Origin: Candidatus Thorarchaeota archaeon
GTDB lineage: Archaea; Asgardarchaeota; Thorarchaeia; Thorarchaeales; Thorarchaeaceae
Assembly (NCBI GenBank): GCA_963726195.1
Contig: CAVSBO010000014.1
Span: 1 to 15,054, forward strand
Reading direction: 5' to 3'
Length of the DNA stretch: 15,054 nt
This document shows positions 1-14,929 of the stretch, piece after piece. Under the pieces are notes generated by a model. The model ran no database searches. It saw only the letters and a program-made list of their open reading frames with translations, and was not told where the DNA came from. The first letter of the stretch is position 1; every line of letters begins with the position of its first letter. The translations under genes were made by a program, and so were the position numbers.

Positions 1-64
1 CTCGTAGTGTGCGACACACTACGCAAAGCGAGTGCAGCGAGCGGAGGCTCTTCGGGGCGGTCAT
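1..64 (-). CDS. 5' start of a small gene running off the window edge (MTAPKSLRSLH...)
   Basis: GGAGGAGG-AC-ATG on the minus strand (ATG at 64). Same SD/start arrangement as the small gene at 933 that follows the other repeat copy. Confidence 0.3.
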   Translation of the reverse strand, partial: MTAPKSLRSLHSLCVVCRTLR

Positions 65-129
65 GTCCTCCTCCTTCTTGTTCTCTGGTTCCGGCATATC
101 TCCATACAGGCGCTCGCCCGCCGCTTCCT

Positions 130-592
130 CGGGAAATCCCTTGCCCGGAAACTCACTCATCACGGTTCTACTCCAATCATGTTCCAACAAAGACCTGCCT
201 CATATTGAAACCCCAGCGATGCCGGGTATCTGCGCAACAGAAGCCACCCACATCAAGCAGACGAACGCTTGTTTGGAAACAGCAGCAGTAGTAGGGCCAT
301 TAGCCCGACTATTTGGTTGGATTCCATAGCCGCTAGGCTCGCCACTTGGAATCTCAGCGCCGGACTTGACGGACTGAAGCCAAACATTCCGCGAGCGTTT
401 CCAACGAGCATGTTCCACATGCCAGGACTGAAAGGGTCTGCAATCGCAACGGCCACCCCCTCCTTGTAAACCATTGCCCCCAACCGAATCACCTTACCAT
501 CTCTTCTCGCATATGGTGTATCCGTTCTTGGTAGCGCTCCAGAGGCATGTTCCTTGGTCGTTTGGACTTGTTCCCCGAACGCGTCATGTAGG
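130..592. repeat. Imperfect direct repeat of about 1045-1510
   Basis: Shared blocks such as ttctactccaatcatg, gccacttggaatct, cggactgaagccaaacattccgcgagcgtt and tatccgttcttggtagcgctccaga. Confidence 0.9.
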
Positions 593-610
593 GTCATGGA
601 CCACGCGCAG

Positions 611-685
611 GCCTAGGAGGAACTGGAGGGACCGGGCTTGGACGTCCCTAGCCCCTGCTCCCTGTGCCTTTGCCTGACAGGCGTC
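611..685. repeat. Imperfect direct repeat of 2161-2235
   Basis: Ungapped alignment at offset 1550 (gcctaggaggaactgg / gccaagtaggaactga). Encodes ARSLQFLLG / ARALQFLLG. Confidence 0.8.
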
Positions 686-686
686 A

Positions 687-933
687 TTAATGGCGCCTTA
701 TCCTTCTGATTTTGACGTATAGCATCAGGGCACCGCATGCTGCGAAAAACAGGCAGGCTGCCGCAACGAACGGGGTTAAAACCGAACGAGACTCGTCCGT
801 ACTAGTAGCACAGAAACTGTAATCGCCCCCATGACAATGGCGAGGAAGAACATAAAGGACATGCAGTCAGACCCAGATGCCGAGAGCCCGACTGCCGACC
901 TACTTGTGCTGGTGGGTAACTATCATGAGACAT
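687..933 (-). CDS. Small two-TM membrane protein, frameshifted (candidate immunity/accessory protein)
   Basis: SD GGAGGAGG then ATG at 933. Hydrophobic segments MSFMFFLAIVMGAITVSVLLV and LTPFVAAACLFFAACGALMLYVKIRRIRRH* lie in different frames; stop at 687-689. Confidence 0.5.
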
Positions 934-949
934 GATTCCGCCTCCTCCG

Positions 950-2727
950 TTTCATCTTGAGACCTTTCGTTTGCAAACGCAGGTAAATACCTTGTGTGTC
1001 GGGCGCAACTTCCTTCCCCGGTCATACGTTTCTTTTCATATCTTCTCGAGAAATCTCTTAACCGGGGATTCGTTCATTATGTTTCTACTCCAATCATGCT
1101 CTAATAAGGAACTACCTCACATTGAGGTCTGAACGGGACCGAGTGCTTTGCGACATCAGATTCACGCCTCAAGAGGACGAAGATGTATTTGGAAGCAGGA
1201 GCAATAGTAGGGCCATTAGTCCAATCATTGAGTTCAGCTCCCATGGCCGCCAAGGCCGCCACTTGGAATCTTAGCGGGCAGAGTTGGCGGACTGAAGCCA
1301 AACATTCCGCGAGCGTTCCCAAAGAGCATGTTCACCATATCAGGATTGATATGGTCCGCAATCGCAACGGGCACACCTTCCTTGTCAGCCATTGCCTGTA
1401 ACTGAATTGCACCACCTTCTTTCTCATATATGGCATATCCGTTCTTGGTAGCGCTCCAGAAGAATGTTCCATGTTCGGTCTCAATCTCTTGCGCAAACAC
1501 TGTATGTAGGCCGCCAGCCGGGTCTCTGACCTTGATTGGCGAACTTGCCTCAGGTGCGCCCCTTGTGGGACGGACAGCCGAACCGATTAGGACCGCTGCA
1601 AGCATACCAACACTGAATCCAATGCTCCACCAGTCCGCGCTCTCTCGCCCGCCTTCGGCGTAGGAAAGTGCCATCATACGCATCGTGGCCGATCCTAGAA
1701 GAAGCTCCAGTGCAAACTTACCTACCTTCCAACCGATTTGCACCAATGTGAACCGCACCAGTGTGCTGGTGCTCGTCGACATCATCTGTTGGAGAGTCGG
1801 AGCTGACTTCCTCGGCGGCCTCTGTCACTCCACCTCCTATTGCTGTGCCTATTGCTCCGCCGAGAAGTCCCAGACCTGCACCTACCGCCATGTAAGTTAG
1901 GGCCGTTAACACTGCATTCCATGTTGCATCGCTGGTGAAGTCGAAGAAGCTGAAGCCCGGCTCAAGCATGTATGCGACATCGCATCCAGCTGCGACTGCT
2001 ATATTGAAGAGTGCCCACGTGAGGGCCATATCTATCAGGGACCGGCCTGTCACAGCTGGTACATGTTGTCTATTCCAAAGACTGCCATCGGGAGACCTAC
2101 CGCAAGTCCGCCTCCTCCTGTGCACGCAGTCGCTAAGACTGCTCCAATGACCAAGCACAAGCCAAGTAGGAACTGAAGAGCCCTGGCCCATAAATCCTTG
2201 GCTCCCGCTGCTTGCGCCTTCGCCCAGTAGGCGTTCCAGTATGTCATGTCGTAAGTGATCTTCAGGTAGGTATAGTCATAGGTGACAAGGTTCGTCATCA
2301 GAGACACAATGTCTCCTTTTGGAATCAGCACCGGGTTGGTATTGAATACAAAAACCTGCAGCATGGGCACTGAACTACAAGCATCAGGGTTAGCACCATC
2401 ATAGACTACTACTCCGGGTTCGGGTGTATAGACGGGTACGTAGTTTCTATCACCACCATAATCACCGCAGCGCATGCTGGTGTGCCCCACGGCTTTGTAT
2501 CCTGTAATCCGCTTGTTGGCATATTGCGTCAAGTCAAAGTTCAAAGTCATTACTGCCTGCGTCATAGTCACGTTACGGTATATCGTGATGTCTCCATAGA
2601 AGAGGCTCAGCTGGACAAAGTATGTATGTCCTGACTGAAATATACCTGTAAGGTTCAAGGTGGTACCGATGCTTGTCGCGAAGACCTGCTGCGACCGGCC
2701 ACACTGTCTTTCTGTGTACACACACAT
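950..2727 (-). pseudogene. Large frameshifted membrane/surface protein (copy B): beta-rich N-part, Gly/Ala-rich hydrophobic helices, soluble C-terminal domain; polymorphic-toxin-like
   Basis: ORFs 2050..2727, 1718..2191, 1234..1785 and 1101..1322 join into one reading through small indels near 2055, 1790, 1280 and 1150. Both ends are approximate, and the breaks may be sequencing errors. Confidence 0.6.
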
Positions 2728-2898
2728 TTTCCCGTTGCAAAGAAAGGCGACCAGAGCACATAGCGCTTTGTTGTTCTCTTTCCTCGATAGGCACTCTGGG
2801 CGTGCGCTAACGTAGCAACTCCGGTATTCATTGACCTAGCCAATTCGGAGTTCGCCTATCTTCAGAGTTTGCCGGCTAAGTCAAGAGGAGTCTGTCAG

Positions 2899-3153
2899 AT
2901 GACGAAATTCCTGCTTGCACTGTGCGGACTTCCTGTTTCTGGAAAGACAACCCTTGCGGAGCAAATCAGAAGAAGTCTGGAGATGCCCTCAAAGGTTCAG
3001 ATTGTAAGCGCAGATCAGTGGCGTGACAGAGAATACTACTCCAGATTCGAACCCAAGACTGTTTCGCCCTTCGAAGCTGAGGCCATAGTGTCACTTCATC
3101 CAGAATTTGAGGAACCGGCTCGTCAAAGTCCACTGGCAGTCTTTTGCAGATGA
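2899..3153 (+). pseudogene. Truncated P-loop kinase, PSTK/KTI12/AAA_33-like N-terminus (authentic only to about 3055)
   Basis: SD GAGGAG at 2885-2890 and ATG at 2899. Walker A LCGLPVSGKTT and VSADQWR are present but no Walker B. The remainder is the antisense of the radical SAM fragment. Confidence 0.7.
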
Positions 3154-3379
3154 ACTTGGCATAGCACCCCCACCAGCACCCGTGGCCCTTGTTCGTCTTC
3201 CCTCCCCTGCATCCGTACACACTCTCCAGTGTGTTTGCCTGATTCTTCGAGTTGCCGTGAATCTCCATAGGGCGAGAGCGGAACCTTCTCTCCTTGGTGT
3301 CAATCCACTTCTTGACCCTCTGGGCAAAGACAGACCTCGGGACTTCGGGAACTTCGGTCTCGACGAGAGAGGGTTTCCA
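3044..3379 (-). pseudogene. Second radical-SAM-like domain, C-terminally truncated
   Basis: GNSK...LESVYGCRGGKTNKGHGCWWGCYA...FDEPVPQIL...WVRI aligns with GNNK...LDTVRGCSFAAVHGFRGCYGNCYL...YWIPVSMKL...YVRN of 3380..4312. The frame is open back to the TAG at 3380-3382; first ATG at 3268. Confidence 0.75.
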
Positions 3380-4312
3380 CTACTCGTCCCCCCAATAGCA
3401 AGCCTTGCTCATGCACTGATTGGAACATTCGTAGCAGTGAGAGTAGCACCCACGACAGCTGTACCCAATGTCGCCAGCACTCTTCCACCGATTAGTGAGG
3501 CGACCATCAGTGTTAGAGAAGGTCGGGGCATAGTGCGCAAGATCGAGCAGGTCGTTGATGGGGCTCTTGCCTCGAATCCTGAGAGGCTGCTCGAATGCCT
3601 TGTCCATGGACATCAGTTCGTCTTGGGTATCCCAGAGTGAGGACTGCTCATCGTTGAACCAAGCTGTAATGACTCTTCTGACCGAATGACCGCCAACAGC
3701 TTCGTAACGTTCAAGGTTGTCGAGGACACGGTCTCGATGTTTTGCAGGGTCTATCGCGCTCGCCGAACCATGAATGACACAATCTATTCTCGCAAGCCTT
3801 TCAAGGACCTGAACCGAAGGCTCAACTCCGAATCGTGTCAGAAGAACAGTTGCCTTGTCGCAGGTATCGCAAAGTTCGGCAACACAAGTGGTTAGTTCCC
3901 AATCAAATGAGGGTTCGCCGTTGACGCCGTTTCTCACATAGTCAGACTTGATAGACTCTATGTCTCTTACGAGTAGACTGGCATTCAGCTTCATTGACAC
4001 AGGAATCCAGTAGTTCATGTGGTATCTTGCCATACTCTCTGCGAGGTAGCAATTGCCATAACACCCCCGAAAACCGTGGACCGCGGCGAAGGAGCAGCCG
4101 CGAACTGTGTCTAGGTTGATTCCGAGCTCAGTTACATTCCGTCGTCCGTACGGCTTCCCGCTCGGGCTGACGTTCGACTTGTTGTTTCCAAATAGCCCGA
4201 TAATCCGCACAGCGAAGCGCAGCCATGGCCTAGACCATCCGGAGCGGGTCCACACAAGAGTAGGCTCGTCTTGTTGAGCATACCCCAGTTGACCGAGGCC
4301 GCCTACCACCAT
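3380..4312 (-). CDS. Radical-SAM-like Fe-S protein with Cx10Cx3C motif and C-terminal Cys cluster
   Basis: RGC-x10-CYGNCY (4049-4096), GGE-like VRNGVNGEPS, LLTR, and C-terminal CxxCxxxCxxCxxxC. Resembles SplB-like and phage radical SAM families. Confidence 0.75.
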   Translation of the reverse strand: MVVGGLGQLGYAQQDEPTLVWTRSGWSRPWLRFAVRIIGLFGNNKSNVSPSGKPYGRRNVTELGINLDTVRGCSFAAVHGFRGCYGNCYLAESMARYHMNYWIPVSMKLNASLLVRDIESIKSDYVRNGVNGEPSFDWELTTCVAELCDTCDKATVLLTRFGVEPSVQVLERLARIDCVIHGSASAIDPAKHRDRVLDNLERYEAVGGHSVRRVITAWFNDEQSSLWDTQDELMSMDKAFEQPLRIRGKSPINDLLDLAHYAPTFSNTDGRLTNRWKSAGDIGYSCRGCYSHCYECSNQCMSKACYWGDE

Positions 4313-4497
4313 GTACCTGCGTCTTGATTTCGGTTAATAACGTCATACGAACTATCATCGCTCAGAACCGACCGAACGAGTATCTTTCCTCGGCAGACAT
4401 CGCAGCTGGAATTCACTTAGAAGTCACCATCATGCTTATATGGGCAGGTCAAGGCGATGGCCATTGTTAGGAAACTCGAAAATGCCCAGCACATATT

Positions 4498-4632
4498 GCC
4501 GCGGTAGCTCAGCTGGGAGAGCGCGAGACTGAAGGCGGCGGCAGCAGACTGTTGCTGGCATACATCTCGCTGTCACTGGTTCGCCTGGACTGACTGCCAG
4601 TCCGGGGCCAAAAAATCCGGTCCGCGGCACCA
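4498..4632 (+). tRNA. tRNA-Phe(GAA) with two introns (37/38: 4535-4563; 56/57: 4583-4612)
   Basis: Acceptor GCCGCGG/CCGCGGC-ACCA. After splicing, anticodon arm CGAGA-CTGAAGA-TCTCG and T-arm ACTGG-TTCAAAT-CCGGT. BHB-like geometry at both introns. Confidence 0.92.
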
Positions 4633-4665
4633 ACTCCTTTTTCGTTCGGTTCGAACTAGCAGTAT

Positions 4666-4720
4666 CTGGTTCAAATCCGGCCGTCTGCACCATCTCCTTT
4701 TTCATTCGGTTCATAGCAGC
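4666..4720 (+). repeat. Degenerate tandem copy of the intron-less tRNA-Phe 3' end plus trailer
   Basis: CTGGTTCAAATCCGGccgtctGCACCAtCTCCTTTTTCaTTCGGTTC versus spliced CTGGTTCAAATCCGGtccgcgGCACCAaCTCCTTTTTCgTTCGGTTC. Confidence 0.85.
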
Positions 4721-4728
4721 AATGTGCG

Positions 4729-5190
4729 ATGAAGACCAGTTCATCAGCGAGCAAAGAAGCCGTGTCAGTTCGCGTGAAGCTGCTGAACGCTGATTCTAAG
4801 ATGCCGTCCCTTGCCAACGAAGGGGACGTGGCTTTCGACCTCTATTCAACTGTCGATATTGATCTTCAACCGGGTCAGCGTTTTGCAGTGCCTATCGGAA
4901 TATCAGTGGAAATACCGCAAGGATATGAGGGACAAATCAGGCCAAGGAGCGGGCTCGCTCTGCAATATGGCGTAACCGTTCTCAATGCTCCTGGCACAAT
5001 CGACAGCGGCTTTCGTGGCGAAATCAAATCGATAATGGTAAACCTCGGGTCAGATGCTTTCAGTATTACGAAGGGAATGAGAATCTGCCAGCTCGCCATC
5101 AGACGCGTGCCGGAAGTGCAACTTGTGAAATCAGAAACCCTCACTCCCTCAGAGAGGGGAGAGAAGGGCTTTGGCAGCAGTGGACATTGA
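4729..5190 (+). CDS. dut: Trimeric dUTPase
   Basis: Motifs AFDL, GQIRPRSGLA, NAPGTIDSGFRGEI, GMRICQL and RGEKGFGSSG. Confidence 0.97.
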   Translation: MKTSSSASKEAVSVRVKLLNADSKMPSLANEGDVAFDLYSTVDIDLQPGQRFAVPIGISVEIPQGYEGQIRPRSGLALQYGVTVLNAPGTIDSGFRGEIKSIMVNLGSDAFSITKGMRICQLAIRRVPEVQLVKSETLTPSERGEKGFGSSGH

Positions 5191-5302: not shown

Positions 5303-5380
5303 GGGTGGGTAGTCTAGATCGGTTATGATACTGCATTGACAGTGCAGTGGTCCCGAGTTCAAATCTCGGCCCACCCACCA
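5303..5380 (+). tRNA. tRNA-Val(GAC)
   Basis: GGGTGGG/CCCACCC-ACCA acceptor; CTGCA-TTGACAG-TGCAG anticodon arm; CCGAG-TTCAAAT-CTCGG T-arm. Confidence 0.96.
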
Positions 5381-9290: not shown

Positions 9291-9630
9291 TTCTCTATAT
9301 GTATCGTGAAAGCCCAAACGTCCATAGGTCGAACCCTTCGTTTCTCAGCCGTCATGAAATCGACGTCTCCTCCGTAGGCTGTATCGAGACATATGAGTCG
9401 CGCTTCTCTGGGTTCCAAAGGTACCGGCGTAATACCCTCTTTTCGTCGAGAGCCCTCAAGAAAAACCGCAACTCAAGGTCTGGCATATCAGAAATACCGA
9501 GTCGCTCTTGAACTGAGACGTACACCTTAGTTCGCACGCGTCTGGAAGCCTTTGCTGCTGACAGTAACAGCGAGGCAGAAGCTTTAAGATTAAGGAATAG
9601 CACAAAGCGTGCACGTGTGTTGGGGGGTCG

Positions 9631-11262
9631 TTGACATTGAATAAGATTGTTCTTACAGTGCTAGTTCTCCTCGTCCTTTCCATGACTGCTGTTCCTGTCG
9701 CTGCCAGTGCAACAAGCGGTGGTGGTCATAAGAATACTGGAGCAACGCAACGGACCAATTCGACGTTGGGTGTTACTACGCCGATTTCCATGAGTGATGT
9801 CAAAGATACCTTTGTGAATCTGCCAACTGAAAGCAACAGGTCGCAGAGCTCTGCTCCCGTAGTCGTGGCACCTGTAGCAAAGGGTAATCTGTCGATGTCT
9901 TCCACCATCTACTCTCAGTATTTGTCAATGGGACAATACATGCCCTGCGTAACTGTGGCAAGGGTAACGAAACATCTCTGGGTATACAATGGGTTCTTCT
10001 CTCCCACTCCTTTGTTGGTGAGCTTTGCGTTCTCCAATCCTGATGAACAATACCCCCGATATTTCCGAGTATATGTTGATGGGTCGAAGGTATGGGAGCA
10101 GGTGGTCCAAACTACGCGCCTCGAAGGGGCGTTCTGGCAGAGCCTTGCAAATGGTATGCACGAGTTCATTTTCGAGGTTTACTATGGTGGTTATGCAAGA
10201 GGTTGGGCACTTGAATACGCAGAGATACAAACAGACCAAGCTATAACCTTGGAGACGTCCGCAGAGCTCGCCCACAATCAGTTGTTTCCTCTTGTTGGCA
10301 TTGCGCAGATTGTGAAGTTTGTTTACGTGGGGGACCTGATAAACAGTCTAAATGAAATGGTACATGTGGCTGTCTCTTCACAGGACATATACAGCCGCTA
10401 TTTGCGCATCAGAGTAAACGACGCCTTAGTATATCAGGTCGTGATATACAAGTCATACGAAACAAGCGTTGATCTGTCGCAGTATATAACACAGGTTGGA
10501 ATCTCGAAGATGACCATAGAGATTCAGTATGCAGGGTACATGCAGTGGAATCTCGTGTATCTCGCAGTGGAAAGGACTGTATCCAAGTATGTTCCTGTGG
10601 CTCTTTCATTGACGCTGTCGTTTGAGTGGTTTCCCGACACAAACTACCTGAACGATTTCATTGCAGGTCTCAGATTCTTCGTAAATCACTGTTGGGATGG
10701 CTTCGAACAGCAAGTCATTATAACGCGAATTGATGTATATCAAGGTGGGTCGATGTGGAACTCAGCCAACATACGCGTTCACTCAGCTAATAACTTCAAC
10801 CCATATTCAAGGGTGTACGCGCCAAGAGACCAACAAGGGAATCCCATACAAGGCGCTTTTCGTGGGCTTCAAGAGATTCACTTGCCCAGGTACTGGCCCA
10901 ATGACTTCTCAACATGGACGACATGGCCAAGTTACTTAGCAATCACTCACGAACTAGCCCATGCCTTCTTCAATGTAGTTGATGAAGGCGTTGGAGGCCA
11001 CCCGGAGATAGAGTGCCGGTCATGGTACGAATGTGTTTCTATTATGGACTATGTACCAAGGCCGTTCATGTTCGAAAAGACAGAGTTCTGTGTTCGCATC
11101 AATCACGATCCTGATGGAGACACGCCACAGACCGCGTGGTGGTGGGGGTGGTCCTGCTGGGAGACAATAGCATACTTCAACGCTGAGATGTACGAGCCCT
11201 TCGTAGTATACAGTACTCCGCAGACTGTGGCATCCAGTTACATGCAGGTTATCGTACATTAG
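9631..11262 (+). CDS. Secreted zinc metalloprotease: signal peptide, S/T linker, two tandem beta-rich repeats, C-terminal CLCA_N-like domain
   Basis: Signal MTLNKIVLTVLVLLVLSMTAVPVAA; HELAH-x6-DE (10948-10986); SIM...EFC...NH......Q.......SCWETI matches the CLCA protease signature. Confidence 0.85.
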   Translation: MTLNKIVLTVLVLLVLSMTAVPVAASATSGGGHKNTGATQRTNSTLGVTTPISMSDVKDTFVNLPTESNRSQSSAPVVVAPVAKGNLSMSSTIYSQYLSMGQYMPCVTVARVTKHLWVYNGFFSPTPLLVSFAFSNPDEQYPRYFRVYVDGSKVWEQVVQTTRLEGAFWQSLANGMHEFIFEVYYGGYARGWALEYAEIQTDQAITLETSAELAHNQLFPLVGIAQIVKFVYVGDLINSLNEMVHVAVSSQDIYSRYLRIRVNDALVYQVVIYKSYETSVDLSQYITQVGISKMTIEIQYAGYMQWNLVYLAVERTVSKYVPVALSLTLSFEWFPDTNYLNDFIAGLRFFVNHCWDGFEQQVIITRIDVYQGGSMWNSANIRVHSANNFNPYSRVYAPRDQQGNPIQGAFRGLQEIHLPRYWPNDFSTWTTWPSYLAITHELAHAFFNVVDEGVGGHPEIECRSWYECVSIMDYVPRPFMFEKTEFCVRINHDPDGDTPQTAWWWGWSCWETIAYFNAEMYEPFVVYSTPQTVASSYMQVIVH

Positions 11263-12594
11263 GTGAGGAGTTGCTTACTGAAAGTGAGCCTCGCAAGAAT
11301 TGGCACACGCAAACAGACAGCTTGTGTTCTGGTCTTCGCGGTCATAGCTACAACGGCATTCTGGCTTCTGCCTGTGACTGCGACCTATGTTGACACGAAT
11401 GCATACCATGTTCTTGTTGTGCCGTTGCGGGACGGAGTAGTTTACCAGAATATGCAGGTCGGAGACCTCAACTCTGACGGGCTCGACGACATTGTGTTAA
11501 CTGGCCACCAATCGCTGGAAGTTGTCCTCCAGAACTCAAGCGGGAACTTCGAACTAAGACCCGCAGTATTCCAAGGGGAAACCTATGGTCGGTTTGTCCT
11601 GACCGACCTCAATGGTGATGGCAGCCTCGACATATGTTGCAGGAACGGTTCTTCGTCGCTTGTCCTTGCTTTCAACGACGGAAATGGCAGCTTCGCAAAC
11701 AGGACGGTCATCGGAATAGGTACGGATACAATCAAGGACATCGTTGTTTTTCACCCCACTAATCTCACAATGTCTATGTTTGCAGTGACGACAATTGGTG
11801 CTCCAGGTGAAATGGCCTTAGTCATACTCTCAAGTGACGGTCATGGACACGTTCATGTTCAGGCGACGGCCAACCTTGCGGAATGGCCAGTCGACATTAG
11901 TGCTGGCGATTTCAACGGTGATACAAAAGACGAGATTGCAGTAATGGGCGATCGTGGGAACCTCAGTTTGATATCTTGGAACGGCTTGTCCTTCGGTGTT
12001 AGCAGTATCAATGCAAGCGGCCTAGCAGGTCTGTTCTATTCTGGATGGTTGCTGCCTATCCGGCTCAACGCTGACCCGTATTGTGATTTGGTGTTTGTGA
12101 CCGACACGGGTCCGGGGCGGCCCGGAAGTATCGCGTTCTTTCTAAGCACAGGGTCGGCTTTCTCTGAGACGCCATCTGTCAAGTCTCTCTCCGGACCCTT
12201 CTTGGGTGCGGGATATGCAGATCTAGATAATGATGGCGAGAGCGATATACTTCTCACTCAGCTTGGTGGAGGAACGCTTGCCATTGAAAACGACATGAGC
12301 GGGGCGCCAGCTCGTTACATGATACTTCCTAATATGGTGACTCCTCATTCCCCGGTAGCTTTGAAGTTGGCCGGTGCCAGTCTTCCCTCCGTCGCGGTGC
12401 TTTCTGAACGCTACTACGGCGATAACTGGATGCAGATTGTTGTATTCTCAAGGGCAAGCGGAATCCTGAGCGAAGCCGTCCCTTTTTCGAGCCAGTATCT
12501 CTACAACCTTCCTTTGCTCGTAGCGCAGTGGGCCACAATATTCATCTGGGTATCCTTGGTTGTCATGATAGTTGGAGGCCGGCTGCGGAGATGA
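11263..12594 (+). CDS. FG-GAP/VCBS-repeat beta-propeller with N-terminal signal/TM and C-terminal TM anchor
   Basis: GDLNSDGLDDI, DLNGDGSLDI, GDFNGDTKDEI, LNADPYCDL and DLDNDGESDI; C-terminal hydrophobic helix followed by GGRLRR. Confidence 0.9.
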   Translation: MRSCLLKVSLARIGTRKQTACVLVFAVIATTAFWLLPVTATYVDTNAYHVLVVPLRDGVVYQNMQVGDLNSDGLDDIVLTGHQSLEVVLQNSSGNFELRPAVFQGETYGRFVLTDLNGDGSLDICCRNGSSSLVLAFNDGNGSFANRTVIGIGTDTIKDIVVFHPTNLTMSMFAVTTIGAPGEMALVILSSDGHGHVHVQATANLAEWPVDISAGDFNGDTKDEIAVMGDRGNLSLISWNGLSFGVSSINASGLAGLFYSGWLLPIRLNADPYCDLVFVTDTGPGRPGSIAFFLSTGSAFSETPSVKSLSGPFLGAGYADLDNDGESDILLTQLGGGTLAIENDMSGAPARYMILPNMVTPHSPVALKLAGASLPSVAVLSERYYGDNWMQIVVFSRASGILSEAVPFSSQYLYNLPLLVAQWATIFIWVSLVVMIVGGRLRR

Positions 12595-12675
12595 TTCCCA
12601 AGAAGACGCCCTCCTGCGTGATTGAAGAATCGCCAATGACCAGATGGTCAAGGACGCCCAGGATGGAGACTTTCT

Positions 12676-12703
12676 CCGGGTTCGAGTCCCGGTGGTCGCA
12701 CCA
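12676..12703 (+). other. Orphan tRNA 3' end (T-arm + acceptor strand + ACCA); pseudo-tRNA or att remnant
   Basis: CCGGG-TTCGAGT-CCCGG-TGGTCGC-ACCA with a T-rich trailer. No pairing 5' acceptor or anticodon stem upstream, only the D-loop-like AGATGGTCAAGGACG. Confidence 0.75.
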
Positions 12704-12900
12704 TTTCTCATTCTGAACTGTGAAGAAGTCATGCCGCAGGAAAGCAATGATCCATCCTATCGCTTTGCACATGGACAGTCTTTGCGTAGTGTCAGCTACA
12801 CAATGCTTTTTTCCACGACGCTGGGACCAGCGCCTGAGATGCTGGCCTGTAACATCGGGGTCTCTTGATGCTCTGGGCTCGGTCATGATGAGGTATTGAA

Positions 12901-14929
12901 ATGAAGTCGCTAAAACACAATGGCATTCTGGTCATTCGTCCTCCCGAAGCCCATGGTCTCACTATACGTGCACGTGGCAGAGAGCTGACGTTGAACCCAC
13001 TCCAAGAGGAAATGGTGGTAGCTTGGGTGAAGAAGCTAGGCACGCCATATGTCGAGGACCCTGTTTTTGCCAGGAATTTCCTGGCTGATTTCAGCAAAGA
13101 ATTGGGTATCAAGCCGCCCCTGAAGCTTGAGGAAGTCGACTTCACTCCTGTTGTACAATTCGTTGAGAAGGATCGTCAGCGAAAGGAGAACATGACAAGC
13201 GAGGAAAAGAAGGCAGACCTAGAGCGGAGGAAAGCCGAGCGCGAGAGGATGAAACAGCTCTACGGCTATGCTACCGTCGATGGAGAAGCGATGGAGCTGG
13301 CAAACTACACGACTGAACCCTCGGGCATATTCATGGGACGAGGGCAGCATCCCCTCAGAGGTCGCTGGAAGCACGGTGCTCTTGAGAAGGACATCATCCT
13401 GAACCTTGACCCGAACTCTCCGAGACCGAAGGGCGATTGGGGCCAGATTGCTTGGGCGCCCGATTGTATGTGGATAGCAAGGTGGACTGACAAGCTTACA
13501 GGCAATGGGAAGTACATCTGGCTACACGATGCGACGCCGATAAAACAGGAACGAGAAGAGGCGAAGTTCGACAAGGCCCTCAAGATGGAAGTCAAGAGGG
13601 AGGAAATCCGTGCCCACATAATGGATGGTCTTCATTCAAGTGATCCCAAGAGGAGAGAGGTTGCAGCCGCGTGTTATCTGATTGATAGGCTGAGCCTGCG
13701 TGTCGGTGATGAGAAAGACCCCGATGAAGCGGACACCGTAGGTGCCACTACACTCAGGGCTGAGCACCTCGCATTCAAGAAAGATTCCGTCCTGTTCGAC
13801 TTCCTAGGCAAAGATAGTGTTCCTTGGCACAAGGAGCTTGAAATGCCTCCGGATGTCTATGCGGTCTTCAAAGAGCTGCATGACAAGGCGGTTGAGAGAG
13901 TTGATTCCTTCAAGACCCGCGCGAGCAGCAAGACCAGCAGCGACCCAAAGAAGGTTGCTCAGGTATTCTCGCGTGTGCGCAGTACTGATGTTAACAAATT
14001 CCTTGGTGAGATAGATCCAGACCTGACTGCCAAGGTCTTCAGGACTCTTCGTGCGACCGTCACGATTCGAGATGAGCTCGGAAAAAGCGGTGTCAAGCGC
14101 AGCGACATGGATTTCATCAAGCGGACAGCGTTCAAGCGAGCGAATCTTGAGGTTGCTCGAGTAATGAACCACACGAAGCAGGCCCCAAGAGGCTGGGCTG
14201 CGACTGCGAAACGCTATGAATCAAGAATCGGGGTCGCCGAAGAAAGGGTCGCCAAAGCGAAGAAACAGTTCGATGAAAAGAAGCGCCGGCTAGCTGATGT
14301 GAAAAGAAAGCAGGCACCCGGGCTCGCGAGGGCTGACGAGCTTGTCTCAAGGCAGAAACAGACTTGTCGAGAAGTACAAGGACTCTGTCTCTCGATGGAG
14401 AGAGAGGCGCGACAAAGCAAAGGTTGCTTGGGATAACGCTCGAGACGACAAACATCGTACGAGAGTCAGTAGGCGCAAGGGCAAGAGGACCAAGAAGGAG
14501 CGACTTGAAGAAGCTGAAAACCGGGTGGACAATCTGAAGCTGAGGCTGGACAAAGCCGAGGAAGGGCTCGTGAAAGCACGCGAAAGGTACGAGAAGAGCC
14601 GAGCTGCTCTGGAGAAGAAAACGGCGGCCCTTGCTTTCTCCAAGCAGAAGTCAGCTGAGCAGGTTGGCCGAGTCGAGAAGACGGTGAACACGTTCAAGAA
14701 TCGAGTCAAGAAGGCCGATGCTGCAAGACAGAAGCTTCAAGATGATTACGACATCGCAAAGAGCACACGCACGTGGAACTTGGGTACATCGCTCAAATCG
14801 TACATCCACCCCAGAGTCGTCTATGACTGGTGCAGAAAGGTGGACATGGACTGGCGGTCCGTCTACTCAAAGACACTCCAAAGGAAGTTCACATGGGTCG
14901 AGCAACCTCGCATCCGTGCTGCCTCATGA
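12901..14929 (+). CDS. top1: DNA topoisomerase IB, eukaryote-like, with a frameshift near 14355-14365
   Basis: LKHNG, EPSGIFMGRGQHPLRG, LRVGDEK..DEADTVGATTLRAEH, FDFLGKDS, TAKVFRT, NH, and GTSLKSYIHPR (catalytic Tyr at 14801) in the second frame. Confidence 0.93.

Follow-up and report, generated by a model that had tools for sequence, protein, structure and literature searches.

A probable radical SAM enzyme of an unnamed family, and the probable remnant of its paralogous partner, on a decayed island at the tRNA-Phe locus of a Thorarchaeota archaeon

Within a stretch of 15,054 nucleotides from a Candidatus Thorarchaeota archaeon (the whole of which we call the window), two adjacent regions, unit 1 and unit 2, encode the same unusual arrangement of three cysteines. 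The account that we favor, with moderate confidence when it is taken as a whole, is that unit 1 is an intact radical SAM enzyme, perhaps acting on DNA; that unit 2 is a dead remnant; and that both belong to a decayed island at a tRNA-Phe gene. Coordinates are collected in Table 1.

Table 1. Coordinates of the features discussed, numbered along the window.
Feature	Position	Strand	Evidence
Strain-specific island, 4.6 kb	38..4665	.	Comparison with congener G022
Membrane-protein gene, split into ORFs 2050-2727 and 1718-2191	1718..2727	-	Homology
P-loop kinase gene, 5' fragment (MTKFLLALCGLPVSGKTT...), ~53 codons	2899..3057	+	tblastx
Unit 2, probable remnant, matching residues ~17-115 of ~325-aa U2 proteins	3044..3337	-	tblastn
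Unit 1 (P0001), U1 subfamily, predicted radical-SAM-fold protein, 310 aa	3380..4312	-	ORF and translation
C-terminal Cys cluster C286..C304 of unit 1	3401..3457	-	Translation and alignment
G-E-P-S, residues 132-135 of unit 1, after beta2	3908..3919	-	Alignment and model
Cys motif C73-x10-C84-x3-C88-Y of unit 1	4049..4096	-	Translation, conservation, model
tRNA-Phe(GAA) with two ~30-nt introns, right end of island	4498..4629	+	Rfam RF00005
3' remnant (T-arm and acceptor) of original intronless tRNA-Phe	4666..4691	+	Comparison with G022 tRNA-Phe

Conservation of unit 1

The preliminary description of this DNA had reported a G-C-x10-C-x3-C-Y motif in both reading frames (4049-4096 and 3164-3211), as well as a GEPS motif and six C-terminal cysteines in unit 1, and all of these are indeed present in the translations. 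Unit 1 reads GNNKSN...DTVRGC73-x10-C84-x3-C88-Y, with NGVNGEPS at residues 128-135 and with C286, C289, C293, C296, C300 and C304 towards its C terminus; the conserved core of this last cluster is C289-x3-C293-x2-C296-x3-C300. Relatives of 311-315 amino acids align with unit 1 over its full length at 43-80% identity, and unit 1 keeps every residue conserved in the family. Its open frame is backed by an independent contig (X2 record 12, 4041-4252) that aligns without gaps; the copy on contig C8 has a 2-nt deletion there. Such independent contigs cover parts of the window. We rejected the reading of this second copy as a real duplication, since it arises where the ends of two contigs overlap over 4.5 kb.

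Clustered at 50% identity, the family has about 194 representatives. The cysteines, on whose conservation in homologs the preliminary description had staked its reading, are nearly invariant: in an alignment of 88 sequences C73 is conserved in 87, C84 in 84 and C88 in all 88. In the columns of G-E-P-S, the same alignment holds G in 63 sequences, D or E in 85, P in 82 and S in 71, and R127, G129, W138, T159, Q230 and R245 are conserved as well. Toward the C terminus, C293, C296 and C300 are found in 69, 66 and 69 of the 88 sequences, respectively; the four-Cys form of this cluster is at least 90% conserved across the U2-type alignment, and phage members keep CxxCxxxCG at this place. Family members differ in the length of the cluster loop, which ranges from x3 to x11; in nine full-length proteins the motif is Cx3Cx2C. 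The maximum-likelihood tree of the family is a quick version, rooted at its midpoint only.

Neither of the two units nor their neighbors matched any family model when scanned with Pfam, NCBIfam, PHROG and PADLOC. The Pfam model Radical_SAM (PF04055) has no match to P0001 or P0002; it stays below its gathering score in all members, with weak matches in 5 of 88 relatives (best E = 1.3e-4). Sequence searches of the PDB with profiles A2 and A3 gave chance matches only, tblastn found no match to P0001, P0066 or P0040 among the genomes of 50,697 isolated phages, and IMG/VR yielded no relative when scanned with the Thorarchaeota profile. In the source databases, clusters of the family are named ‘hypothetical’ or not at all, the sole exception being a hydrolase name on an amidohydrolase fusion (P0118), and literature searches on DUF5131, on the ‘three-Cys-motif partner’ and on fusions of radical SAM and DNA methyltransferase domains found no account of it. 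The preliminary description had spoken of a poorly characterized system; no curated model claims the proteins, and in all likelihood they belong to a real, unannotated and unnamed clade of the radical SAM superfamily, with unit 1 as an intact member.

Predicted fold of unit 1

AlphaFold reached a pLDDT of 46 when given 7 sequences; the model used here comes from the run with 88 homologs, and it has six beta-alpha repeats, a pLDDT of 91.8 and a pTM of 0.91. In this model strand 70-72 precedes C73, C84 and C88 and helix 89-95 follows them, the x10 insert forms a short helix (residues 74-81) in the beta1-alpha1 loop, and G-E-P-S follows strand 125-128. We take G-E-P-S to be the counterpart of the ‘GGE’ SAM-binding motif, whose role in radical SAM enzymes it would share.

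A Foldseek comparison, one of the checks that had been proposed, recovers a partial TIM barrel whose top matches in the PDB are radical SAM enzymes, with modest TM-scores of 0.35-0.44. With VIA-align, spore photoproduct lyase (SPL; 4fhc) ranks first among 48,161 chains (Z = 12.7, rmsd 3.8 Å, 232 residues), in an alignment that covers residues 2-291 of the model, N-terminal part included. Radical SAM enzymes also make up almost all of the 40 or so rows that come next, at Z-values of 7-10.8, and structure matches in BFVD agree with this picture. Only two of the VIA-align matches, SPL and lysine 2,3-aminomutase, span the N-terminal 60 residues. Judging by the model, we are confident that unit 1 has the radical SAM fold, as a partial (beta/alpha)6 TIM barrel, and belongs to that family.

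The canonical cluster motif of radical SAM enzymes is Cx3Cx2C. This spacing is absent from the proteins of the window, where both units have Cx10Cx3C, a spacing for which we know of no precedent among radical SAM enzymes. The aromatic residue of the motif follows the second cysteine, departing from its usual place before the third.

The remnant of unit 2

When it is required to begin with a start codon, unit 2 is an ORF of 100 amino acids on the minus strand (2966-3268), which reads GNSKNQ...SVYGC20-x10-C31-x3-C35-Y. Its likeness to unit 1 is beyond chance: BLASTP aligns the two over 62 residues (E = 1e-5), a profile of unit-1 relatives matches 3047-3250 (E = 4.3e-9), and tblastn with the full-length unit 2 of relatives gives E = 1.9e-26 for L027 (3047-3337) and E = 4.9e-19 for L026. 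The two units are true paralogs.

The homology ends near position 3044, the left boundary that the preliminary description had given to the pair, and tblastn with unit 2 of L027 and L026 finds nothing downstream in any frame. Homologs elsewhere are about 290-330 amino acids long, so that the window holds roughly the first third of such a gene; the GxxGEPS region, the C-terminal Cys cluster and all but one of the six barrel repeats are missing. At the other end, the conserved N terminus (24 residues) is encoded ahead of any start codon, and no in-frame ATG, GTG or TTG occurs between the stop codon of unit 1 (3380-3382) and the ATG at 3268. The last 26 or so codons of the ORF run antisense to the fragment of a kinase gene, which matches G022:C24 (tblastx, 70% over 54 aa, E = 1.7e-24) and also G024:C16, where the gene continues. 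Unit 2 and the kinase fragment abut tail-to-tail. A separate metagenome contig (X1 record 5, 2962-3146) spans this junction with 3 mismatches, and the C8 copy is identical there. No intact unit 2 was found in the 88.9%-complete assembly, which has only a 58-aa fragment on C4. Unit 2 in the window is almost certainly a pseudogene, namely a 5' fragment. Of the tandem pair that had been described at 3044-4312, the relationship between the units is therefore upheld, while the second unit shrinks to the first third of a gene.

In related Thorarchaeota, six loci spread over four genomes (three in G060, and one each in G040, G012 and G042) have unit 2 directly after unit 1. At G060:C67, where the pair consists of P0007 and L026:1067-2044, its two ORFs share 10 nt, and downstream of them lie a gene for a TcmP-like protein, for which a PDB sequence search returned nothing, and an SPL-like radical SAM gene at 3.8 kb from the pair. 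The neighbors of the pair in Thorarchaeota are mostly unknown proteins. Some unit-2 proteins have PIP-box-like tails (Q-x-x-L-x-E-F). The suggestion of a two-component system accordingly fits the other Thorarchaeota, in which the tandem pairing is kept, and fails for the window, in which unit 2 lacks the SAM-motif region, the C-terminal cysteines and its native start. If the enzyme requires unit 2, unit 1 may here be inactive and itself decaying.

Comparison with known systems

Spore photoproduct lyase (SplB; PF20903, TIGR04070), the best structural match, shares with unit 1 the partial TIM barrel of radical SAM enzymes, and it is a repair enzyme that acts on DNA. The two differ in sequence: unit 1 matches neither PF20903 nor TIGR04070, nor SPL in PDB sequence searches, and hhalign of its family against the SPL-like neighbor gives a probability of 1%. 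Moreover, SPL has Cx3Cx2C and is without the C-terminal Cx3Cx2Cx3C cluster of unit 1.

The DUF5131 proteins (phage Gp37-Gp68; PF07505) have an N-terminal three-Cys motif, ‘GC...GC..CYA’, in the same style as unit 1, and they are borne by phages or islands together with a methyltransferase-like partner, TcmP (TIGR04474), which recalls the TcmP-like gene near the pair at G060:C67. However, PF07505 has no match among the window proteins or at family loci in 87 Thorarchaeota genomes, and the spacing in DUF5131 is Cx6Cx2C as against Cx10Cx3C. We rejected an identity with DUF5131, given that the hhalign match, at a probability of 50%, is confined to the Cys motif and its surroundings (33 columns).

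Another tandem arrangement of two radical SAM genes on mobile DNA is the radical SAM mobile pair A/B (TIGR04471 and TIGR04470), with which units 1 and 2 share that concept. Neither model matches P0001 or P0002, and P0019 matches mobile pair A only weakly (E = 0.006, 16 bits against a cut-off of 355). The members of the mobile pair come from different radical SAM families, whereas units 1 and 2 are paralogs of one family.

Other radical SAM enzymes depart from the canonical motif, such as QueE (Cx14Cx2C), HmdB (Cx5Cx2C) and ThiC (Cx2Cx4C), and they are precedents for lengthening of the cluster loop without loss of SAM cleavage. QueE is also among the fold matches of unit 1 (VIA-align Z = 10.1). 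None of the three has a sequence relation to the unit 1 family and, to our knowledge, none pairs a long first loop with x3 between the second and third cysteines.

Phage relatives and the link to DNA

The phage clade of the family has 208 matches in IMG/VR. Among 40 examined loci, 29 genes are fusions of about 730-790 amino acids (L041:6950-9193 is an example of a phage fusion), and nine others adjoin a protein of about 463-474 amino acids, of a kind that carries a DNA methyltransferase domain where scanned. This domain is recognized by phrog_498 (down to 3e-38) and as N6_N4_Mtase; a PDB sequence search with the methyltransferase-like partner returned nothing. No defense model of PADLOC-DB matched unit 1, unit 2 or the Thorarchaeota neighbors, and its Type II methyltransferase models match only the methyltransferase half of one phage fusion. 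Elsewhere in the family, P0130 carries a fused domain of an ATP-dependent DNA ligase, and members of the x6x3 clade are fused to TauD and amidohydrolase domains, which suggests that substrates probably differ across the family.

Because of the methyltransferase fusions or adjacency in phages and the ligase fusion, a DNA-directed radical reaction is our best guess, and we name DNA, either repaired or modified, as the substrate of the unit 1 family tentatively. The preliminary description had noted that variant spacings occur in phage or mobile-element families, and had suggested a system that possibly modifies nucleotides, DNA or tRNA. The mobile setting applies to the wider family, while no phage genes were found on the island itself; the nucleic-acid link is plausible from the DNA methyltransferase and DNA ligase fusions, while position implies no functional link to tRNA. 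The evidence pointing to DNA comes from other clades, in the form of the phage methyltransferase fusions and the ligase fusion, and from the neighbors in one relative.

Proposed mechanism and alternatives

By analogy with radical SAM enzymes, C73, C84 and C88 in the enlarged beta1-alpha1 loop would bind a [4Fe-4S] cluster, the fourth iron of which would hold S-adenosylmethionine, with G-E-P-S in contact with SAM. Reductive cleavage of SAM would then yield methionine together with a 5'-deoxyadenosyl radical, and this radical would take a hydrogen atom from the substrate, for which DNA undergoing repair or modification is the best candidate. The C-terminal Cx3Cx2Cx3C of unit 1 would hold a second Fe-S cluster or a zinc ion. 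Unit 2 is very probably the dead 5' third of a paralogous partner gene that in related Thorarchaeota is full-length and overlaps unit 1, a deletion having fused what is left of it tail-to-tail with the truncated kinase gene.

One might instead follow the preliminary description and take the two units for partners in a functional radical SAM system, the 100-aa unit 2 supplying a second Fe-S site. The ORF is open, begins with ATG and keeps its three-Cys motif, and the occurrence of the junction in an independent contig implies that the arrangement persists in nature. Against this, however, a protein of that length lacks two-thirds of its homologs, including the GxxGEPS region, most of the barrel and the C-terminal cysteines; its conserved N-terminal 24 residues precede any start codon; and its final codons are the antisense of a kinase gene. 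We consider a working pair in the window highly improbable. It is somewhat less improbable, but still hard to credit, that unit 1 has kept a radical-SAM-like barrel and lost radical chemistry, its cysteines binding zinc or a structural cluster and the protein serving in binding or in non-radical catalysis. In favor of this, the x10/x3 loop is enlarged and the aromatic residue displaced relative to the canonical motif, and the Pfam Radical_SAM model fails; yet the same family includes canonical Cx3Cx2C members, the three cysteines and the GGE-like motif are nearly invariant across very divergent sequences, and long-loop enzymes such as QueE are known to work.

A more serious question is whether a true radical SAM enzyme acts here on something other than DNA, be it tRNA or rRNA, a protein or peptide, or a small molecule. 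The fusions to TauD dioxygenase or amidohydrolase in one clade suggest small-molecule chemistry, the fold matches of unit 1 cover many substrate classes, and the Thorarchaeota neighbors offer mostly unknown proteins. The dominance of methyltransferase fusion or adjacency in the phage clade, the DNA ligase fusion, the PIP-box-like tails of some unit-2 proteins, and the rank of SPL as top structural match, spanning the N-terminal 60 residues, all speak against it, and we regard a non-DNA substrate as unlikely. Returning to DNA as the favored substrate, we advance as speculation a broader proposal: a new functional class with an expanded cluster loop and radical chemistry on DNA, acting in Asgard archaea as a unit 1/unit 2 heteromer, possibly recruited by a PCNA-binding tail of unit 2, and in phages in a form coupled to a DNA methyltransferase, writing or repairing a DNA modification.

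More undiscovered enzyme chemistry lies in the radical SAM superfamily than in any other known source. With fusions to methyltransferase and ligase domains as pointers to DNA, the present family, which has roughly 194 clusters and hundreds of phage genes, is a candidate for a new DNA modification or repair reaction common to phages and Asgard archaea. That one family spans cluster loops from x3 to x11 also means that motif-based radical SAM searches would miss such members.

The island at tRNA-Phe

In the congener G022, which is without the island, the counterpart of window position 37 is joined to that of 4666 through an intact intronless tRNA-Phe, with flanks about 80% identical. Very probably, then, a 4.6-kb island has been inserted at the tRNA-Phe gene. 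Besides unit 1 and what remains of unit 2, it carries the kinase fragment, a membrane-protein gene and an internal repeat of 440 bp; neither an integrase nor a phage gene was found on it. The tRNA-Phe at its right end, 186 nt from the start codon of unit 1, scores 38.3 bits with Rfam RF00005 (gathering score 29), has two insertions of 32 and 33 nt, and is 86% identical to the G024 locus; ARAGORN did not detect this intron-bearing gene. We rejected an ORF on the minus strand (4436-4744) as a gene, as it overlies the tRNA. The 3' remnant of the original tRNA-Phe lies within a direct repeat, 4613-4661 and 4673-4721 (repeat family D5). The proximity of unit 1 to a tRNA and a dUTPase, which the preliminary description had pointed out, reflects the insertion of the island at the tRNA-Phe gene and not a functional link to tRNA or dUTP metabolism. 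The copy in the window is half decayed, and what it mainly documents is the gain of a module at a tRNA gene followed by erosion.

The membrane-protein gene of the island is 29% identical to L024:5879-7150, and the window and the C8 copy differ in it by indels near 2056 and 1990. At G060:C19 a single gene, of 424 aa, separates unit 2 from a downstream homolog of this membrane-protein gene.

Sequence and homology of the two units

Unit 1 and unit 2 of the window each contain the motif GN-x-K ... G-C-x10-C-x3-C-Y, at 4049-4096 and 3164-3211 respectively, exactly where the preliminary description had placed it; the NGVNGEPS motif and the six C-terminal cysteines that it reported for unit 1 are also present. 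Judging by sequence similarity, the two units are homologous: BLASTP aligns them at E=1e-5, a profile built from relatives of unit 1 matches window 3047-3250 (E=4.3e-9), and the unit-2 proteins of related genomes match 3047-3337 (E=1.9e-26). Unit 1 is full length and keeps every residue conserved in the family.

Features of the window discussed in the text
Feature	Position	Strand	Remarks
~440-bp direct repeat	124-560 and 1042-1482		71-86% identity, spacing ~917 bp
P-loop kinase 5' fragment	2899-3057	plus	~53 codons (GLPxSGKTT; MTKFLLALCGLPVSGKTT...); cut where the unit 2 fragment ends
Unit 2 ORF	2966-3268	minus	100 aa
Unit 1	3380-4312	minus	310 aa
tRNA-Phe(GAA)	4498-4629	plus	complete, two ~30-nt introns (anticodon loop and T-loop); Rfam
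49-nt direct repeat	4613-4661 / 4673-4721		spans both tRNA 3' ends and trailers
dUTPase	4729-5190
tRNA-Val	5303-5380
Topoisomerase IB	12901-14436		eukaryote-type

Searches of Pfam, PHROGs, NCBIfam and PADLOC gave no model match for either unit. A word-indexed search returned only 17 relatives; an exhaustive HMMER search with a seven-sequence profile, at a threshold of E<=1e-3, returned 194 representative proteins.

Fold and cysteine motif

Using an alignment of 88 full-length family members as input, we obtained a confident AlphaFold model (pLDDT 91.8, pTM 0.91) with six beta-alpha repeats between residues 70 and 247. The partial TIM barrel expected of a radical SAM protein is thus seen in the model, and fold searches recover it as well. 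In the PDB, Foldseek places radical SAM enzymes at the top, among them AprD4, HydE, EpeE, MgmA, QueE, MiaB, PFL-AE, viperin, MoaA, anSME, BioB and spore photoproduct lyase (SPL), and a search of a viral structure library is consistent with this result. In a structure search independent of Foldseek, SPL ranks first (Z 12.7, 232 residues, rmsd 3.8), and the roughly 40 entries below it are nearly all radical SAM enzymes (Z 7-10.8).

The three cysteines are conserved among the homologs, as the preliminary reading required: C73 occurs in 87, C84 in 84 and C88 in all 88 of the aligned sequences. Other near-invariant residues in this alignment are G-[DE]-P-S (132-135), R127, G129, W138, T159, Q230 and R245. 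In radical SAM enzymes a [4Fe-4S] cluster is bound between the first strand and the first long helix, and in the model the three cysteines lie between just such elements (residues 70-72 and 89-95), with the x10 insert forming a short helix (74-81). Across the family the spacing of this loop varies: the canonical Cx3Cx2C occurs in nine full-length members, Cx6Cx3C-F in one clade, and Cx9-11Cx3C-Y in most of the others. A quick, midpoint-rooted tree places the canonical sequences in separate clades and joins the subfamilies matching unit 1 and unit 2 with an intermediate group in a single clade (SH-aLRT 97%).

It is important to ask whether the family belongs to one already described, and we find no characterised family that claims these proteins. 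SPL, a DNA repair enzyme, is the nearest structural match, but the family fails every SPL sequence-model test. Among the 88 members there are weak Pfam matches to Radical_SAM (five) and DUF5131 (one). We rejected assignment to DUF5131 because a PF07505 search finds only loci other than those of the family, and the hhalign match consists of the cysteine motif alone. Nor is the family a member of the TIGR04470/04471 mobile pair. We conclude that within the radical SAM superfamily it represents a new variant, one that merits experimental work. On the modelled structure, it probably works like a radical SAM enzyme. The analysis shows the fold and the conservation of the motif; cluster binding, SAM cleavage and substrate we infer.

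Distribution and associations with DNA enzymes

Matches to the family occur in 17 of the 87 genomes of the class, many of them as fragments with stops or at contig ends. The tandem order, unit 1 and then unit 2, recurs at six loci in four genomes (three in G060, one each in G040, G012 and G042), and the three loci of G060 share ~87% DNA identity. The distribution is that of a patchy, mobile and often decaying module. At one locus, contig G060:C67, the ORFs of the intact pair overlap by 10 nt and are followed (L026 2048-6738) by a 493-aa protein without assigned function, a 552-aa TcmP-like protein (E=6e-10 to TIGR04474, short of the cut-off) and a 307-aa SPL-like radical SAM protein; pair and downstream genes together may form a larger DNA-directed module.

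A phage clade of the family comprises 208 IMG/VR hits. At the 40 phage loci examined, 29 genes encode fusions of 730-790 aa (e.g. L041:6950-9193); most phage relatives have this form, with a DNA methyltransferase domain at the C terminus. At about nine of the 40, the relative instead adjoins, upstream or downstream, a separate gene for a protein of ~463-474 aa, and all five such proteins scanned carry a DNA methyltransferase domain. The domain models concerned are phrog_498 (down to 3e-38), N6_N4_Mtase and PADLOC MTase_II. A fusion with an ATP-dependent DNA ligase domain occurs in one further relative, and of about eight unit-2-type tails inspected, three contain Q-x-x-[LV]-x-E-F, which at the motif level resembles a PCNA-interacting box. 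Methyltransferase fusion or adjacency, ligase fusion, TcmP- and SPL-like neighbours, the structural match to SPL and the PCNA-box-like tails are all leads pointing to DNA. Conversely, members of the Cx6Cx3C clade are fused to TauD or amidohydrolase domains, which counts against a uniform DNA role.

The copy in the window

In related Thorarchaeota unit 2 is ~325-330 aa long (e.g. L026:1067-2044, L027:6795-7784) and has both a GxxGEP motif of its own and, at the C terminus, Cx3Cx2Cx3C. In the window, homology to it runs only from 3337 to ~3044 (residues ~17-115), with none beyond ~3044 in any frame. The sole start codon, the ATG at 3268, comes after a conserved N-terminal stretch (...KKWID...), and the sequence separating it from the unit 1 stop contains no ATG, GTG or TTG in frame. 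By comparison with its relatives, then, unit 2 in the window is a gene fragment. The kinase fragment occupies the strand opposite unit 2 from 3057 leftwards, and has full-length homologs in two congeners (G022:C24, G024:C16). Two convergent genes have therefore been cut short and fused, for which a deletion is the simplest account.

This is a real junction and no artefact of assembly: it is identical in an overlapping contig, C8, and an independent wetland-metagenome contig spans it (X1 record 5, 2962-3146, 3 mismatches). Elsewhere in the assembly (19 contigs, 88.9% complete; the window is G000:C14:1-15054) an intact unit 2 is likewise missing; a 58-aa fragment on contig C4 is all there is. 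Close homologs of unit 1 are labelled Candidatus Thorarchaeota by their sources.

C8:1-4491 matches window 4494..1, read in the opposite direction, with 99.1% identity and several indels of 1-2 nt. We rejected a duplication here: two contig ends overlap and were left unmerged, and the indels have the look of assembly errors close to those ends. The C8 copy of unit 1 has a 2-nt deletion; an independent contig (X2 record 12, 4041-4252, no gaps) lacks it.

An island at tRNA-Phe

The flanks of congener G022 are ~80% identical to those of the window, and in G022 an intact tRNA-Phe(GAA) without introns links the positions that correspond to window 37 and 4666. The window retains the first 4 nt (34-37) and the last 26 nt (4666-4691) of this gene, separated by 4.6 kb absent from G022. 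The insert ends in the intron-bearing tRNA-Phe, which scores 38.3 bits against an Rfam gathering score of 29 and is not detected by ARAGORN; congener G024 has the intron-bearing form at the same locus. A 102-aa ORF overlying it (4436-4744, minus) was discarded as spurious. The tRNA remnants and the 49-nt repeat mark the ends of the island.

Besides unit 1, the island carries the fragments of unit 2 and the kinase, a split gene for a membrane protein (with a homolog downstream of the G060:C19 pair as well) and the ~440-bp repeat. This repeat covers ORF 253-597 and part of ORF 1234-1785 (both minus), neither of which has a family match. Among the genes of the island we recognised neither an integrase nor any of phage origin. 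The window copy is half dead: one gene is intact, the other a fragment, and the tRNA-Phe island that carries them is eroded. Since the island inserted at tRNA-Phe, its proximity to a tRNA and dUTPase reflects the insertion site and not function. The preliminary observation holds, and its interpretation does so in part: the radical SAM assignment stands, the functional tie proposed from these neighbours does not.

The window also encodes an acyltransferase and an FG-GAP protein. In three congeners the segment bearing topoisomerase IB (12860-14911) is inverted and directly adjoins position ~9290, and the stretch 9293-12859, which holds a 543-aa ORF and an FG-GAP protein, finds no match at the DNA level in these three. 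The arrangement of 9293-14911 reflects either a rearrangement or a second insertion.
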